A stretch of DNA of 64,000 nucleotides, taken from assembly GCA_963715195.1 (NCBI GenBank), contig CAVQRT010000007.1, positions 160,001 through 224,000 of the forward strand, written 5' to 3'. Source of the stretch: Thermodesulfovibrionales bacterium (lineage in GTDB: Bacteria; Nitrospirota; Thermodesulfovibrionia; Thermodesulfovibrionales; SM23-35). A program made the position numbers. Positions 33,001-48,000 of this stretch are shown piece after piece. Each line of letters begins with the position of its first letter. Position 1 is the stretch's first letter.

Positions 33001-36000
33001 CGCCTTTGAACCAATGGGGACAATACGCTCTTTCTTCCCTTTTCCCCTGATCTTTACGAGGGATTCCTTCAGGTTCATATCGTCTGTATTGATTCCCGAC
33101 AGTTCACTCACCCTCAGGCCGCTTGAATAGAGGAGTTCAAGGATAGCCCTATCGCGGACAGGGATGAACCCGATTCCCTGGGGTTTTTCGACGAGGGAAA
33201 AAACATCATCAACTGAGAGGAACCTCGGAAGACGCTTTGGGACTTTCGGATTCGAAACGAGTTTCGCCGGATTGGTTTTCATATACCCTTCACGGTACAG
33301 GAATTTGAAGAAGGACCGGATGCTTGACAGGCGGCGGCTTACCGTTGTCCTGTTCAATCCCTTCTGTATCTGCGCCGCAATAAAACCACGGATATCAATG
33401 ACATCCAGACTATTGGGCATATCCCCGACGGATTCGGCAAACTCGTCGAGATCTCTTCTGTAGGCACGCACAGTATGGGACGATACACCCTTTTCAAGAT
33501 CAAGATAGCGGATGAATTTTTCGATGTAGTCTTTCAATGAATATTATGTGTTCATCAAAAAGATAAATGAGAAAAGTGCAGGTATTTGATAAATTTTATT
33601 TTGATACCTTAGTGTACATCGAATTGATGATTTAGTGAATATTTTTATCCGGATAGTGATGATAGATATTTCAACCAAATCATCAAGTTAAAAAATTATG
33701 TACACGATGTCTGCACCTTTACGGTTAGGGCTTGTCTTTGAGTACCGCCAAGGTCTTTTCGAGGCTGTCCATATCCTCAACATTGAAAACTGCTGCGGAT
33801 GCATCGATTCTCTTTATTAATCCTGACAGCACTTTTCCGGGCCCTACTTCCAGAAATGTGGTAATCCCGGAATCCATGATAGCCCTCACAGAATCCTCCC
33901 AGAGGAGCGGATGGTTGAGCTGGCGCACAAGTGATTTTTTTATTACCTGTGCATCGGTCAGGAACCGTGCATCGGCATTGCTGACAACGGGAACAGAGGG
34001 ATTGTTGAACACGATCGTATCGAGCAAATCCGACAGTTGCTGCGATGCCCCATCCATCAACCGGCAATGAGACGGAACACTTACGGCAAGAGGCACCGCC
34101 TTCTTTGCACCTGCACCCTTGCTGATTTCAATCGCTTCCACGACAGCTTCTTTTTCCCCTGCTATAACAATCTGCCCGGGGCAGTTATAATTTGCAGGTG
34201 CGGCATACCCTGACTTTACAGATAAGCAGATATCCGCAACCTTCCCTCTGTCAAGACCGAGAACCGCCGCCATTATCCCTTTCCCCTCGGGAATAGCTTC
34301 CTGCATAAAGAATCCCCTCTTTTCAGCAACCTTTATCGCATCGGAAAAAGATAATGCTCCCGCTGCCACAAGGGCGGAATATTCACCAAGGCTATGGCCG
34401 GCAACAACCGAAGGACTGATATCTTTTTCGCTGAGAACTCTGTGCAAGGCCATGCTTGCTGTGAGAATGCAGGGTTGTGTCCTGAACGTTCTGTTCAGTT
34501 CTTCGGCCGGACCGGAAAAGGATACCTGTGCTATATCGTAACCCAATGCATCAGAAGCTTCTGCGAAAGTTGCCCTCGCCACAGGGAAATTATCTGAAAT
34601 TTCCTTTCCCATTCCGACATACTGCGAACCCTGTCCGGGAAAGACAAAAGCAAGCTTCATGCTCAGGATCCCCTGAATTCCCGTATTTTCTTGATCAGCA
34701 GCGGTACGATCTCATAGAGGTCTCCGACTATGCCATACGTCGCCACATTGAATATGGGAGCTTCAGGGTTCTTGTTGATTGCTATAATAACGTCTGATGA
34801 CTGCATGCCCACGAGATGCTGGACAGCCCCTGATATCCCGCAGGCAACATACAGTTTCGGACATACCGTTTTCCCCGTCTGTCCGACCTGATGCCTGTAA
34901 GGCATCCACCCGGAGTCAACAGCCGCCCTTGAAGAGCCGACTGCACCACCAAGGAGCTCGGCAAGCTCCTCAAGAAGTTTAAAACCTTTCGGGTCACCCA
35001 GTCCCCTTCCTCCGGAAACAATGATGTCTGCCTCCTGAAGATTCACCATGCAGTCTGATGTTTCTTTCACTGTCTGGAGAACCTTTGTACGTAACCGTAA
35101 TCCATCCGAGGTTACCTGGATGATATCCCCTTTTCTTGCTTCATCATACCCGCAGCGTTTCATCACCCTTGGCCTGACCGTGGCCATTTGCGGTCTGTAA
35201 TGCGGGCAGAGGATCGTGGCCATGATATTACCGCCAAAGGTAGGCCGTATCTGTAGAAGGTTTCCTGTATCCCTATCGATTTCAAGGGATGTACAGTCGG
35301 CGGTAAGACCTGTCCTCAGCCGTGCTGCAACCCGCGGGAAAAAAGAACGGCCGATCGGGGTTGCACCGGTGAGCACAATTTCAGGACGGTGCTGGAGAAT
35401 AAGTGAATGCAGTAATTGTGCGTACGGTTCATCATTGAAATGTTCGAAGACAGGATCAGTGGAGTGATAGACTCTGTCGGCACCCCATTTAATGAGCTCT
35501 TCTGCTTCTGCTGGCGCTGCGCCAAACAGAACTGCTGACAGGTCGGTAGCAAGAACATCAGCCAGCTTTCTTCCGATGCCGATGAGTTCATATGCAACAG
35601 AGGCGATCTTTCCCTCCCGCTGTTCCGCAAAAACCCATACGCCTTTATACGCATGGACATCTTCGGTGCCGGCCGGTGCTTCCCGTTGAACTTCGATAAT
35701 CGCTCCCTCCGGACAGATGCTGACGCAGGACATGCACGCCTCGCAATATTCGTTGATGAACGCCTTCCCTTCCTTCATCACGATTGCTTCAACAGGACAT
35801 GATGAGATGCATTCCCCGCAACCGTTGCATTTATCGGCATTGACAATTACAGGCATTTTATCCCCCTGAGTTCCTGTAGCAGTGCGTCAACCTGTTCTTC
35901 GGGTGTACCTTCGAGCATTTTTCTCCCTGAACGCGCATCAGGCGTAAAGATATTTTTCACCTGTGTCGGTGAACCCTTCATTCCAAGATCACTTTCGTCT

Positions 36001-45000: not shown

Positions 45001-48000
45001 TGATTCTGGGAAGTCTCTTCCTGACGGTGCTGTTCATGCAGGCGAATGTTTTTGCTGAGGATGAAGCGGTTGTCGCAAAGATCGGCGACAAGAAAATAAC
45101 CACGAAGGATTTCAAGAGGATTACCGACTATTTCGACCTTGAGCGGCAGAAAATGCTCGAGACAAACCCCCAACTGAAAGAGACTGTTCTGAAGCAATTC
45201 ATCCAGAGCATTGTGATATCGGATCTGGCAAAACAGAAGGGATTTGACAAGAACCCCGAAATCAGGGAACAACTTCAGTTTTTCTCGGACAACTTTCTCG
45301 CGAATGAATATCTGAAGCGCGAGATAGCCGAAAAGATAACGGTTTCTGATGATGAACTGAAATCCTATTATGATACCCATACCGATGAATTCAAAGCCCC
45401 GGAGATGATCAAAGCACGGCATATTCTTGTGAAGGTTGAGGACACTGCTTCCGAGGATGAAAAGAAAAAGGGAAAAGAAAAGGCCGAAATGTATCTGAAG
45501 AAGATCAAGGAAGGCGAGGATTTTGCCAAACTGGCGTCGGAAGTCTCTGATGACCCCGGCTCAAAAGCAAAAGGCGGAGACCTCGGTTTTTTCCCGAAGG
45601 GAAGAATGGTTAAGCCGTTTGAGGATGCTGCGTTTTCTCTTAAACCAGGAGAGGTGAGTGGATTGGTAGAAACCCAGTTTGGTTTTCATATCATAAAAGT
45701 TGAGGAGAAAAAGGACTCGACGGTAGAGACATTCGATGCGGTGAAAGACCGCTTACGGCAGAAACTGCTACAGGACCGCATGAGAAAGGAAGTTACGGAA
45801 TTTATTGACAAGGCAATGCAGGACTCAAAAGCAGAGATATTCCCTGATGTTTTGATGGGCGGTAATAAGTAAGTCTTTTTTCCCCCCGACTATATCTGAC
45901 AAGGAACCCTGATAAACCAGGGTTCCTTGTTTCCTTCCCCTGTCTACTACTTACTGTTTAAAGTCTACCTCTTGGCTGCCTCTTTAATCAGTGCCTGACC
46001 GATGACGTTTCTCTGAATCTGATTCGTCCCTTCATATATCTGGAGGATCTTTGCATCTCGCATCATCTTCTCGACAGGATATTCCCTCATGTATCCCGAT
46101 CCCCCCATAACCTGCACCGCGTTCGTTGTGACTTTCATTGCCATGTCTGTTGCAAAAACCTTTGCCATGGCTGCTACCTTCGAGGCATCTTTGGCACCGC
46201 TGTCCATATACCTCGCGACGGCATATACAAGTGCACGTGATGCCTCTATCTCTGTTGCCATGTCGGCAAGCATATGCTGGATTGCCTGGAAACTGATAAT
46301 AGGATGACCAAACTGTACACGCTGGCGGGCGAACTTCACTGCTTCCTCGAACGCACCCTGCGCTATCCCCACTCCCTGGGCACCTACCCCAACCCGGGCA
46401 TTGTCGAGCGTCTTCATGGCCACTATAAAACCCAGTCCTTCCTTCCCGATAATATTCTCTTTGGGTATCCTGCAGTTGTCGAAGATCAGTTCCCGTGTAG
46501 AAGATGCCCGTATACCCATCTTTCGCTCCTTCTTTCCGAACAGGAAGCCGGGGGTATCCTTTTCGATAACGAATGCAGATGCACCACGTGCGCCTTTTGA
46601 TTTATCCGTCAGGGCGATGATCGTGTAAATTTCCGCCTCTCCTCCATTCGTTATCCATTGTTTTGTGCCGTTGAGAACATATTCGCTGCCTTCGAGCCGG
46701 GCAGTCGTCTGAATTCCTCCGGCATCGCTTCCGGCATTCGGCTCGGTCAAACCAAATGCAACAAGCCGCTTGCCGAGGGCTATCTCGGGCATATATTTCT
46801 TTTTCTGATCATCTGAGCCGAAGAGCAGTATCGGATACGTGCCGAGCGCATTTGCCGCATAGGTTGTTGCAACCCCAAGGCATGCGCGGGAGAGCTCTTC
46901 AACGGCGACGCATAATTCAAGGTTTCCCTTTCCGAGTCCTCCGTATTCCTCGGGAATAAACAGCCCAAAAAGATCAGCCTGTGCGAGAACATTCATGATC
47001 TCCCATGGAAACTCCTCTTTATCATCCAGTTCTTCCCTCACAGGGACGACTTTTTCCTCGGCGATCTGTCTCGCAAGATCTCTTATCATGACCTGGTCTT
47101 CATTTAAAAAATAGTCCATGCTTCATCCTCCACAGTAGGGTTGTGCTTCTGGAAGTTAATTCTAACATTAACAAAATGTCTTTTGATATACGAAATTATC
47201 CGACACAGCACGTTTTCAAAAAAAGAATATTTTGCAAAGCAATGGATAAGGAGGCTGGGATTACAAAAAGCTCAGTGTACCGTCAAGGATCTTTAATCCT
47301 GTTAAGGCGGAAGTAACTTCACGATTATTGGAAACCCACATGACCTGTGCCTTGAGACTGACATCGTTGATGTTGATATCAACCGTATCAGCAAGAGGAA
47401 GAGACGGGCTGCCGAATATTTTCAGGCAGATTCCGTTATCAGAGACATCCATGGTGCATGCCTGAATGTTTTGGTTCTGATAGGTGAATAGCAAGGGGAT
47501 TTCTTTCTTCACGCGGGACTGTCCTCTTTTCTCCGGACCGTACTTGCCGCTGAAAAGAACTCCGCAATACGGACATGGCTTGAACTTCTCCACAGAAGCA
47601 CTGTAGGAATCTTTACTACACTTTGGACATGTCAACCGTAAGATCACACAAGGTCTCCTGCAGAGAATTCATTTGAAAGGACCGCTTACAGAATCATCGT
47701 CTCCTCGCCCATAACACTTTTACACGAAACAGAGAGATTTTACAATTACCCATAAGGCTGACATTTCAGACTATTTAGTTTGAAAGGAAGGGGAAACTTT
47801 CGTTTTAATACCTCAAATATGGCCGGGCCAGATCTTGTGTGTATAAAGAGCGAGCTGCAGCCTGTCCGAGACTCCAACTTTTTTAAAAATACGGTTGCAA
47901 TGTGATTTCACCGTCTGCTCAGTGATGGAAAGCTTCTGGGCTATTTCTTTGTTCCTGTACCCGTGACATATGAGCGACACGATCTCTTTCTCTTTTCTGG

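Follow-up and report, generated by a model that had tools for sequence, protein, structure and literature searches.

We propose that the acyl-CoA-dehydrogenase-fold flavoprotein Acd and the electron transfer flavoprotein EtfAB of a Thermodesulfovibrionales bacterium probably act together as the enoyl-ACP reductase that type II fatty-acid synthesis requires, both in this host and in its anaerobic relatives. The genes lie in a stretch of 64,000 nt (contig CAVQRT010000007.1, positions 160,001 to 224,000), hereafter the window (Table 1). An earlier survey of the genome had read them as an ETF-coupled enoyl-ACP reductase, and we uphold this as the best explanation. The reading gains support because FabK and a FabL-like SDR occupy the same gene position in sister lineages, because a FabV search with a working control leaves that enzyme unfound in the host, and because a FabX-like gene is absent from closed relatives. 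Acd-EtfAB would be an undescribed kind of enoyl-ACP reductase: our literature searches returned no description of it in this role, and neither "acyl-CoA dehydrogenase" nor "electron transfer flavoprotein" occurs in the main text of a 2022 review of enoyl-ACP reductases (PMC9260719).

Table 1. Features of the proposed reductase system, in positions of the window.
Feature	Position	Strand	Description
fabD	33725-34660	-	malonyl-CoA:ACP transacylase; TIGR00128 361.4 bits vs cut-off 260.9; single copy
etfA	34663-35856	-	397 aa, ETF large subunit, CarE-like; Pfam Fer4 (N-terminal), ETF and ETF_alpha
etfB	35847-36629	-	260 aa, putative bifurcating-type ETF small subunit; GKQAIDGDT motif
sigma70-like promoter candidate	36680-36709	-	TTTACA-18-TATAAT, upstream of etfB; 11/12 consensus match only
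acd	45965-47119	-	384 aa, acyl-CoA-dehydrogenase-fold flavoprotein; Pfam Acyl-CoA_dh_N/M/1; proposed enoyl-ACP-reducing subunit, predicted catalytic Glu363

Gene layout and the host's fatty-acid synthesis genes

The genes, their families, their operon position and the known reductases that remained unfound were read directly from the sequence. All four reading frames were confirmed where the survey had placed them, and a genome-wide count shows acd, etfA, etfB and fabD to be single-copy genes, in agreement with its claim of a single acd and a single etfB-etfA pair. The reading frames of etfB and etfA overlap by 10 nt and those of etfA and fabD are 2 nt apart; a ribosome-binding-like, purine-rich stretch precedes the etfB-side ATG. 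The three genes thus form one apparent operon, whose co-transcription we infer; RNA contigs (from four of eight listed runs) covered short pieces only and bridged no gene junction. One sigma70-like candidate site lies upstream of etfB, but the region holds five such sites versus 5.1 in shuffled sequence, hence no excess. The survey had acd co-transcribed with this operon, although it placed the gene about 9 kb away. The measured distance to etfB is 9,335 nt (9.3 kb) with intervening genes on both strands, and therefore only etfB-etfA-fabD can share a transcript, acd being unlinked and separately transcribed here.

The host genome (97.8% complete, 6.6% contaminated, 36 contigs) encodes accABCD, fabH, fabD, fabG, fabZ, fabF, acpP, plsX, lpxA and lpxD. 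As the other type II fatty-acid synthesis genes are present, the host must have some enoyl-ACP reductase. FabI and FabK were not found in its genome, as had been claimed, and neither were FabL and FabV; the FabV search, which had earlier lacked a working control, now detects the enzyme in 7 of 81 Clostridia (E ~1e-100 or better). The only PF13561 match in the host is FabG. The reported lack of beta-oxidation enzymes also held: FadJ, FadI and E. coli AcuI gave zero tblastn matches in the host genome, no crotonase was found there, and its Thiolase_N matches are FabH and FabF only. Family I CoA-transferase (PF01144) was found in none of five genomes searched, the host included, and no gene for a caffeate-activating CoA-transferase or CoA-synthetase is adjacent to the host acd or etf genes. 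With crotonase, thiolase, FadJ and family I CoA-transferase all unfound, no CoA-ester pathway is left in which Acd could work. The host also carries a FabX-like NMO gene and a lone ETF:quinone-oxidoreductase-like gene; these, together with its unlinked acd, we counted against the reductase reading.

Distribution of Acd and exchange of genes in the fab cluster

Among 151 genomes of the phylum, 86 have an Acd ortholog (73-87% identity), 48 have FabI, none has both and 17 have neither, which reproduces the pattern first seen in 61 genomes; these genomes are kin rather than independent, and the distribution goes back to a handful of replacement events. Within the order, Acd is retained in 40/40 genomes at 78% identity or more. 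FabK exceeds its cut-off in 4 of the 151, none of them with an Acd ortholog. The 17 genomes with neither Acd nor FabI comprise three with a true FabK, eight with a FabL-like reductase between fabH and fabD (8/8 inspected), one that lacks fabD too, and five left out of inspection. The FabL model NF005975 matches 142 of the 151 genomes, none over cut-off, and cannot separate FabL-like SDRs from FabG in this phylum; FabL-like genes were therefore judged by locus. SDRs of this kind scoring above 200 bits also occur in three genomes of the order (family f7) and in one further genome, and the one inspected belongs to a secondary cluster. The slot SDR of family f23 was considered as a FabV for its weak PF12241 match and rejected as FabL-like. 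Two closed relatives have no full-length NMO, and their SDRs are FabG and one unrelated SDR only.

Outside the order, acd lies directly behind fabH in 20/20 loci, and 17 of these run uninterrupted from plsX to fabF with acd-etfB-etfA between fabH and fabD, which bears out the cluster plsX-fabH-acd-etfB-etfA-fabD-fabG-acpP-fabF described for other Nitrospirota classes. Two loci carry an acyl-CoA-synthetase-like gene inserted behind etfA. The same slot between fabH and fabD is filled by FabK in 4/4 loci (487.6 bits versus a cut-off of 453.1 in the one scanned) and by a FabL-like Yx6K SDR in the eight inspected loci, and is empty in 5/5 loci where FabI is used. The occupation of the acd-etfB-etfA slot by FabK or a FabL-like reductase in genomes with neither Acd nor FabI is new here. 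Because this gene position holds known reductases in sister lineages, Acd-EtfAB most likely catalyses the final step of the pathway. In the order, the ancestral cluster would have been broken up, leaving etfB-etfA with fabD and acd alone. Across 18 loci, no gene of the cluster is better conserved than acd (mean 74.5%, versus 68.5% for AcpP and 51-59% for the others).

Beyond the phylum, 28 of 42 acd loci not titled Nitrospirota have a same-strand fab gene no more than 4 kb away. In five loci, acd lies directly behind plsX with no etf alongside; acd also persists in five fab clusters without fabH, and three or more distinct gene orders in different phyla keep its linkage to fab genes. The survey's statement that Acd and FabI never co-occur is true of the phylum sample but not beyond it, where FabI-like genes are present in 4 of the 42 genomes, one of them with fab-linked acd. 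FabL exceeds its cut-off in one non-phylum genome, similar SDRs occur in two others, and another has a FabK-like gene (338 bits); co-occurrence of FabI, FabL or FabK with Acd in some of these genomes was likewise counted against the reductase reading. In Clostridia the acd-etfB-etfA cassette lies apart from fab genes, and FabK is present in 3 of 8 genomes with the ortholog. Free-standing cassettes are found in Bacillota, near-identical in two genomes.

The Acd and ETF proteins and a possible mechanism

The best PDB match of Acd is Bcd of Clostridium difficile (5ol2_C, E 5e-126), and identity to 5ol2 and 4l1f is about 52%. It falls below all NCBIfam cut-offs, AcrC being the closest. The structure model (pLDDT 92.9) superimposes on ACADs with a TM of about 0.95, and a fold search returned only the ACAD fold. 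All 122 orthologs group in a single clade (SH-aLRT 100, stem 0.68), with 13 clostridial ACADs falling outside it. E363, at the position of MCAD E376 in an IYEG motif, is invariant in 122/122 family members. The pocket helix aligns without gaps to MCAD and carries small residues at the positions of MCAD Q95 and E99, with A88 in 122/122 orthologs; the extra pocket His of Bcd (S-A-H helix) is missing, that column being a gap in all 122. In VLCAD, Gly stands in place of Gln/Glu in the pocket. No fewer than 117 of 122 orthologs keep lysine or arginine at positions 197, 236, 310, 314 and 379, versus about 3-8 of 13 comparators. A predicted complex of two Acd, FAD and AcpP gave a score of 0.03 and a mark of 0.32 and carries no weight for or against the proposal.

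ETFs fall into groups that separate bifurcating from other types, and the present ETF appears from its sequence to be of the bifurcating type, with an NADH/beta-FAD site. The five best PDB matches of EtfB are CarD (6fah), 5ol2, LctB (7qh2), 4kpu and 7koe (E 6e-77 to 5e-61), and other ETFs among the matches listed score 2e-26 or weaker; the DGDT motif is present in 75/76 EtfB copies. EtfA matches CarE best (6fah_A, E 1e-130, full length), and its N-terminal 2x[4Fe-4S] ferredoxin domain carries two CxxCxxCxxxC motifs in 67/67 full-length copies, so that the CarDE-like character attributed to this ETF is corroborated.

By analogy with Bcd-EtfAB and CarCDE, NADH would reduce the EtfB flavin, electrons would travel by way of the EtfA flavin to the FAD of Acd, the reduced FAD would deliver hydride to C3 of trans-2-enoyl-ACP, and Glu363 would protonate C2, leaving an acyl-ACP that FabF can take into another round. 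More speculatively, the second electron of each NADH may pass through the EtfA [4Fe-4S] clusters to ferredoxin; each step would then cost two NADH and return two low-potential electrons. If the reductase role is right, such bifurcation is likely as well, if less certain than the role itself. An archaeal ACAD/ETF pair of the ordinary beta-oxidation type could not be run reductively in vitro, according to the part available of a preprint (bioRxiv 2024.07.05.601840).

Bcd-EtfAB (C. difficile 5OL2; A. fermentans 4L1F/4KPU) shares with this system the ACAD fold with catalytic Glu, the DGDT motif and, as proposed here for Acd-EtfAB, enoyl-thioester reduction. It differs in that the present host lacks crt, hbd and thl and its relatives keep the genes in a fatty-acid synthesis cluster; Acd forms a separate clade with an MCAD-like pocket helix, EtfA has a ferredoxin domain, and the proposed substrate is enoyl-ACP. 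The caffeyl-CoA reductase-Etf complex CarCDE (Acetobacterium woodii, 6FAH) resembles it in both ETF subunits and the EtfA [4Fe-4S] domain; however, CarC ranks only 12th among the PDB matches of Acd (E 1e-99), no family I CoA-transferase was found, and Acd has a housekeeping-like distribution. The acryloyl-CoA reductase AcrCAB differs in that all three subunits stay below NCBIfam cut-offs (480/640, 379/600 and 253/475 bits). With the enoyl-ACP reductases FabI, FabL, FabV, FabL2, FabI2 and FabMG (SDR) and FabK (FMN TIM barrel), Acd-EtfAB shares the proposed reaction and, with FabK and the FabL-like SDR, the slot, but it comprises three subunits and would draw electrons via ETF. Having the ACAD fold rather than an SDR Rossmann or FMN TIM barrel fold, Acd is not a member of the FabI/L/V/K families, although it may work alike. 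The MbtN, RedW and PigA families demonstrate that the ACAD fold can accept a carrier-protein-bound substrate; they are oxidative enzymes of secondary metabolism (NRPS/PKS clusters), in contrast to the primary context of Acd, which scores far below their cut-offs (79/700, 254/650 and 234/500). Helicobacter pylori FabX likewise combines flavin with [4Fe-4S] and works at C2-C3 of acyl-ACP, but has the NMO fold and is, in the available sections of its description, an oxygen-dependent dehydrogenase/isomerase (PMC8626469); the host's FabX-like gene is separate from Acd.

The final reduction in fatty-acid elongation is essential, and with every new class of enzyme for this step the annotation and targeting of the pathway have shifted. 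The chances seem to us about even that Acd-EtfAB is a new, also bifurcating class across many anaerobe phyla, an ACAD fold fitted to ACP and C4-C18 chains that couples each elongation round to ferredoxin reduction, with FabI, FabK and FabL as possible later replacements in some lineages. If the reductase reading is true, it supplies a missing enzyme for hundreds of anaerobe genomes, sets right a common misinterpretation in which acd-etfAB is taken to indicate butyrate metabolism, beta-oxidation or caffeate respiration, and puts the ACAD fold to primary fatty-acid synthesis on ACP. It may also extend electron bifurcation into biosynthesis, inside a core pathway, with an energetic gain that is probably modest, lipid flux being small.

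Alternative functions and rejected candidates

Acd-EtfAB might instead act on short acyl-CoA esters linked to lipid synthesis and produce or trim the primers of FabH (butyryl-, isobutyryl- or methylbutyryl-CoA), with an unrecognised protein as the true enoyl-ACP reductase. The constant place of acd behind fabH would fit such a role, as would butyryl-CoA dehydrogenases as best sequence matches, the synthetase-like gene at two loci, and the invariant D239 and R242, which match MCAD D253 and R256, residues that we take to bind CoA. We nevertheless regard it as unlikely: no crotonase or thiolase was found to supply enoyl-CoA, acd is kept in clusters without fabH, replacement by FabK or a FabL-like SDR is left unexplained, and a second unknown enzyme of the same distribution is required. 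Rather improbable is an energy or detoxification module of Bcd, Car or Acr type (crotonyl-, caffeyl- or acryloyl-CoA reduction) that stands among fab genes by history only. Bcd, CarD and CarE are indeed the nearest solved relatives, AcrC is the best NCBIfam match, and free-standing cassettes exist in Bacillota; yet no partner enzyme was found, Acd is universal in the order genomes sampled, linkage to fab genes survives in several gene orders, and Acd-bearing genomes would be left without a reductase.

Similarly improbable, finally, is that Acd-EtfAB is an oxidative acyl-ACP dehydrogenase (FabX-like backtracking to unsaturated acids) passing electrons via ETF to quinone, the reductase being the FabX-like NMO or another protein. 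Carrier-bound ACAD-fold dehydrogenases do exist (MbtN and RedW families match weakly), the host has an ETF:quinone-oxidoreductase-like gene, and the FabX-like NMO accompanies Acd in 68 of 86 genomes, at one locus between acpP and fabF. Against this, 4/4 closed relatives gave no match to the ETF-QO domain, 10/10 genomes of family f6 gave no NMO match (family search on three of these), and the ETF appears to be the NADH-oxidising type used with reductases. In FabX itself, as far as its available description goes, the [4Fe-4S] domain replaces the NAD(P)H domain of FabK, and the enzyme dehydrogenates (PMC8626469). The survey had named the FabX-like NMO as a possible reductase; since 18 of the 86 Acd genomes, some of them closed, have no such gene, we reject it as the general enzyme. 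MDR-family proteins of the host and closed relatives were rejected too, the seven inspected of eight loci carrying alcohol-dehydrogenase-type zinc-binding motifs.

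The missing reductase and the candidate genes

The source genome (97.8% complete, 6.6% contaminated) carries the fatty acid synthesis genes accABCD, fabH, fabD, fabG, fabZ, fabF, acpP, plsX, lpxA and lpxD. As the survey had reported, neither FabI nor FabK was found in it: the sole PF13561 match is FabG, leaving no FabI or FabL, and no FabK was detected. FabV was likewise not found; the earlier search had no working control, and the control is now positive (7 of 81 Clostridia match at E about 1e-100 or better). Equally borne out is the reported lack of β-oxidation enzymes, with zero matches in the genome to FadJ, FadI and AcuI, and neither crotonase nor family I CoA-transferase found. 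The main fabF behind acpP (contig C31:98836-100081, plus strand) is broken into two frames near position 99110, by assembly error or in reality. Further fabF-like genes lie at C7:313824-316744 (fabF-fabZ-fabF, with no adjoining ACP match) and C7:414242-415495.

The survey's finding in the window was confirmed, with fabD, etfA, etfB and acd at the positions and on the strand it had assigned, each in one copy in the genome. The etfB and etfA reading frames overlap, 2 nt separate the end of etfA from fabD, and a promoter-like site precedes etfB; the three genes therefore probably share a single transcript, as judged from this layout. RNA contigs spanned none of their junctions. Unrelated genes fill the 9,335 nt between acd and etf-fabD. 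The nearest named records, among the best 80 of at least 593 candidate stretches from GTDB species genomes, are Nitrospirota of the order Thermodesulfovibrionales.

Principal features, with positions in the window, on contigs of the source genome (C7, C31) or in fetched loci (L; for the FabX-like NMO and the ETF:quinone-oxidoreductase-like gene, a second set of coordinates)
Feature	Position	Strand	Remarks
fabD	window 33725-34660	-	family cut-off passed
etfA	window 34663-35856	-	N-terminal two-cluster ferredoxin domain
etfB	window 35847-36629	-	ETF subunit
acd	window 45965-47119	-	three acyl-CoA dehydrogenase domains; no NCBIfam cut-off reached
FabX-like NMO	C7:280522-281622	+	four-cysteine cluster motif
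FabX-like NMO	L002:1456-2556		
ETF:quinone-oxidoreductase-like	C31:198605-200269	-	lone gene, 554 aa
ETF:quinone-oxidoreductase-like	L274:6606-8270		
FabL-like SDR, f23/f25	L055:1339-2148	-	between fabH and fabD
FabL-like SDR, f23/f25	L258:6138-6950	+	between fabH and fabD
FabL-like SDR, f23/f25	L267; L268		between fabH and fabD

Elsewhere in the window, a gap of 187 nt separates fabD from xerC-hslV-hslU (30719-33537, minus), downstream of it and likewise on the minus strand, and an ExeA-like AAA ATPase gene with a peptidoglycan-binding domain and a GspB-like gene (36757-39101, minus) are immediately upstream of etfB. The gene at 23578-24690 (minus), possibly a defence gene, encodes 370 aa with a GmrSD domain at the N-terminus. 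There are also an AddAB-like pair of PD-(D/E)XK nuclease and UvrD helicase (49503-55114, plus) and, at 6947-11712 (minus), a gene for myo-inositol-1-phosphate synthase and two overlapping genes, one for a DRTGG-domain protein and one for a protein like ADP-forming acyl-CoA synthetases.

One position in the fab cluster

Outside the order, plsX-fabH-acd occurs in all 20 loci fetched, followed by etfB-etfA in 19; the arrangement described in the survey, running directly on to fabD-fabG-acpP-fabF, was seen in 17. In four of four FabK genomes FabK is located between fabH and fabD, as is a FabL-like SDR in the eight genomes inspected from families f23 and f25, and fabH adjoins fabD in the five FabI-using families checked. 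This position is thus occupied alternately by three unrelated gene sets, one of them a proven reductase family. The alternation, which is new relative to the survey, is the strongest argument for a reductase role of Acd-EtfAB. Within the order the cluster is fragmented: among 15 loci (7 kb each side of acd), acd lies within 300 nt of etfB-etfA-fabD in three, the etf genes are 1-5 kb away in three, and acd is alone in nine. In two loci (L094:11092-13949 and L099:1612-4532) etfA is followed, instead of by fabD-fabG-acpP-fabF, by an acyl-CoA-synthetase-like gene plus a divergent fabD-like one of 280 aa.

The phylum sample comprised 151 genomes at least 90% complete, identical for every query. Acd orthologs (73-87% identity; next ACADs at most 47%) are present in 86: the source genome, 39/39 other genomes of the order, 2/2 of the class, 7/7 of family f15 and 37/38 of f17, two of the last being fragmented. 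FabI (E 1e-57 or better) occurs in 48, none with an Acd ortholog, and FabK above cut-off in four, again none with Acd. One genome, G065, has a 33% FabI match within a secondary cluster holding ACP, fabF and a FabX-like gene. Of the 17 genomes without Acd and without FabI, three have FabK, and 13 (f23, f25) are explained by the divergent FabL-like SDR, inspected at eight loci; the remaining five show just the same weak domain match in a frame of equal size. In G108, the seventeenth, fabD is missing too, and its fab locus is therefore probably absent from the assembly. The SDR (269-281 aa, Yx6K; best model FabL at 154 bits, far below cut-off) occurs in genomes where FabI, FabK and Acd were not found, and it probably represents an unannotated enoyl-ACP reductase subfamily of its own.

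Protein features, proposed mechanism and alternatives

Among PDB sequences, EtfB and EtfA match CarD/CarE best and then other ETFs of the bifurcating type, ordinary ETFs trailing far behind; 75 of 76 EtfB copies carry the DGDT motif, and all 67 full-length EtfA copies carry both cluster motifs. Acd, the most conserved of the cluster proteins, best matches C. difficile Bcd and has a predicted standard ACAD fold. Its 122 orthologs, gathered by similarity, form a single clade with a long stem, separate from a small outgroup of 13 clostridial ACADs (three beside crt/hbd/thl-type genes). The pocket helix aligns gap-free with that of MCAD, and the additional His seen in Bcd is missing; at the positions of MCAD Q95 and E99, Acd has Ser or Ala and an invariant Ala, respectively. 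These two positions close the MCAD cavity and are Gly in VLCAD; small residues there in Acd would fit the C4-C18 range required of a sole reductase. Several basic residues are kept more than in comparator ACADs and, placed by inference at the entrance, would suit the acidic ACP.

Judged from sequence and gene context, Acd-EtfAB is quite probably an enoyl-ACP reductase, and the survey's interpretation is supported, with qualifications, by the slot alternation, the exclusion within the phylum and the FabV control. Electrons would pass from NADH through the EtfB and EtfA flavins to the Acd FAD, which would reduce trans-2-enoyl-ACP by hydride transfer to C3, Glu363 giving the proton; the second electron would reach ferredoxin through the EtfA clusters, by analogy with Bcd-EtfAB and CarCDE. 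Given a reductase role, bifurcation is likely.

It is improbable that Acd-EtfAB supplies an acyl-CoA primer and some other protein is the reductase. The FabX-like NMO of the source genome (143 bits against the FabK model, cut-off 453) has H. pylori FabX as its best PDB match, and relatives stand within fab clusters in three loci (L112, L156, L216). The gene is absent from 18 of 86 Acd genomes, including 10/10 of family f6, whose closed genomes hold zero full-length NMO and, as SDRs, only FabG and one unrelated protein. FabX, in the passages of PMC8626469 that concern it, has a [4Fe-4S] domain in place of FabK's NAD(P)H domain and dehydrogenates. An unrelated CoA-ester reductase is a slightly more remote prospect, and an oxidative acyl-ACP dehydrogenase the least likely. 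The latter gains slightly from the ETF:quinone-oxidoreductase-like gene (neighbours: the dnaK-dnaJ region and a glutamine-synthetase-like gene), whose product may be a second partner for the single EtfAB, but the domain was not found in the four closed relatives searched. An archaeal β-oxidation ACAD/ETF pair had no reductive activity (bioRxiv 2024.07.05.601840); reaction direction thus depends on ETF type.

We found no description of Acd-EtfAB as an enoyl-ACP reductase in the full-text literature searched (few subscription journals, supplements excluded), and the ACAD fold goes unmentioned in the main text of a review from 2022 on enoyl reductases in bacteria (PMC9260719). The machine and the reaction are each of a known kind; their pairing is not.

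Occurrence beyond the phylum

In GTDB species genomes at least 593 candidate stretches were confirmed, of which the best 80 were kept. Of the 42 loci whose titles do not name Nitrospirota, 28 have a fab gene no more than 4 kb away on the same strand, as have 16 of the 38 whose titles do; some loci stop early at contig ends. The loci include records from Thermodesulfobacteriota, Syntrophorhabdaceae, Actinomycetota, Rokubacteria, Saganbacteria and Omnitrophota, and show at least three gene orders across phyla: within fabH-fabD, behind fabF, and a lone acd behind plsX.

The survey had stated that Acd never occurs together with FabI. This holds within the phylum (0/151), but outside it the exclusion is loose: 4 of 42 genomes, taken without stated completeness, have a FabI-like gene (three Bacillota with acd unlinked; G171 with acd linked). 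FabL-like SDRs occur in three of the 42, the single one scanned exceeding the cut-off, and FabK-like genes below cut-off in several; FabV was found in none. In the Clostridia sample the Acd ortholog occurs in 8 of 81 genomes, each time in an acd-etfB-etfA cassette that is free-standing; FabK is also present in three of these eight. The coexistence of two reductases has a precedent in E. faecalis, with FabI and FabK (PMC3791895), but where Acd accompanies a known reductase the cassette may also have a different job. Two Clostridia, both with FabK, carry near-identical cassettes (L230:7001-10169, L231:4978-8146) preceded by the same sugar-catabolism genes and next to a transposase-like gene, which suggests recent movement or close kinship.
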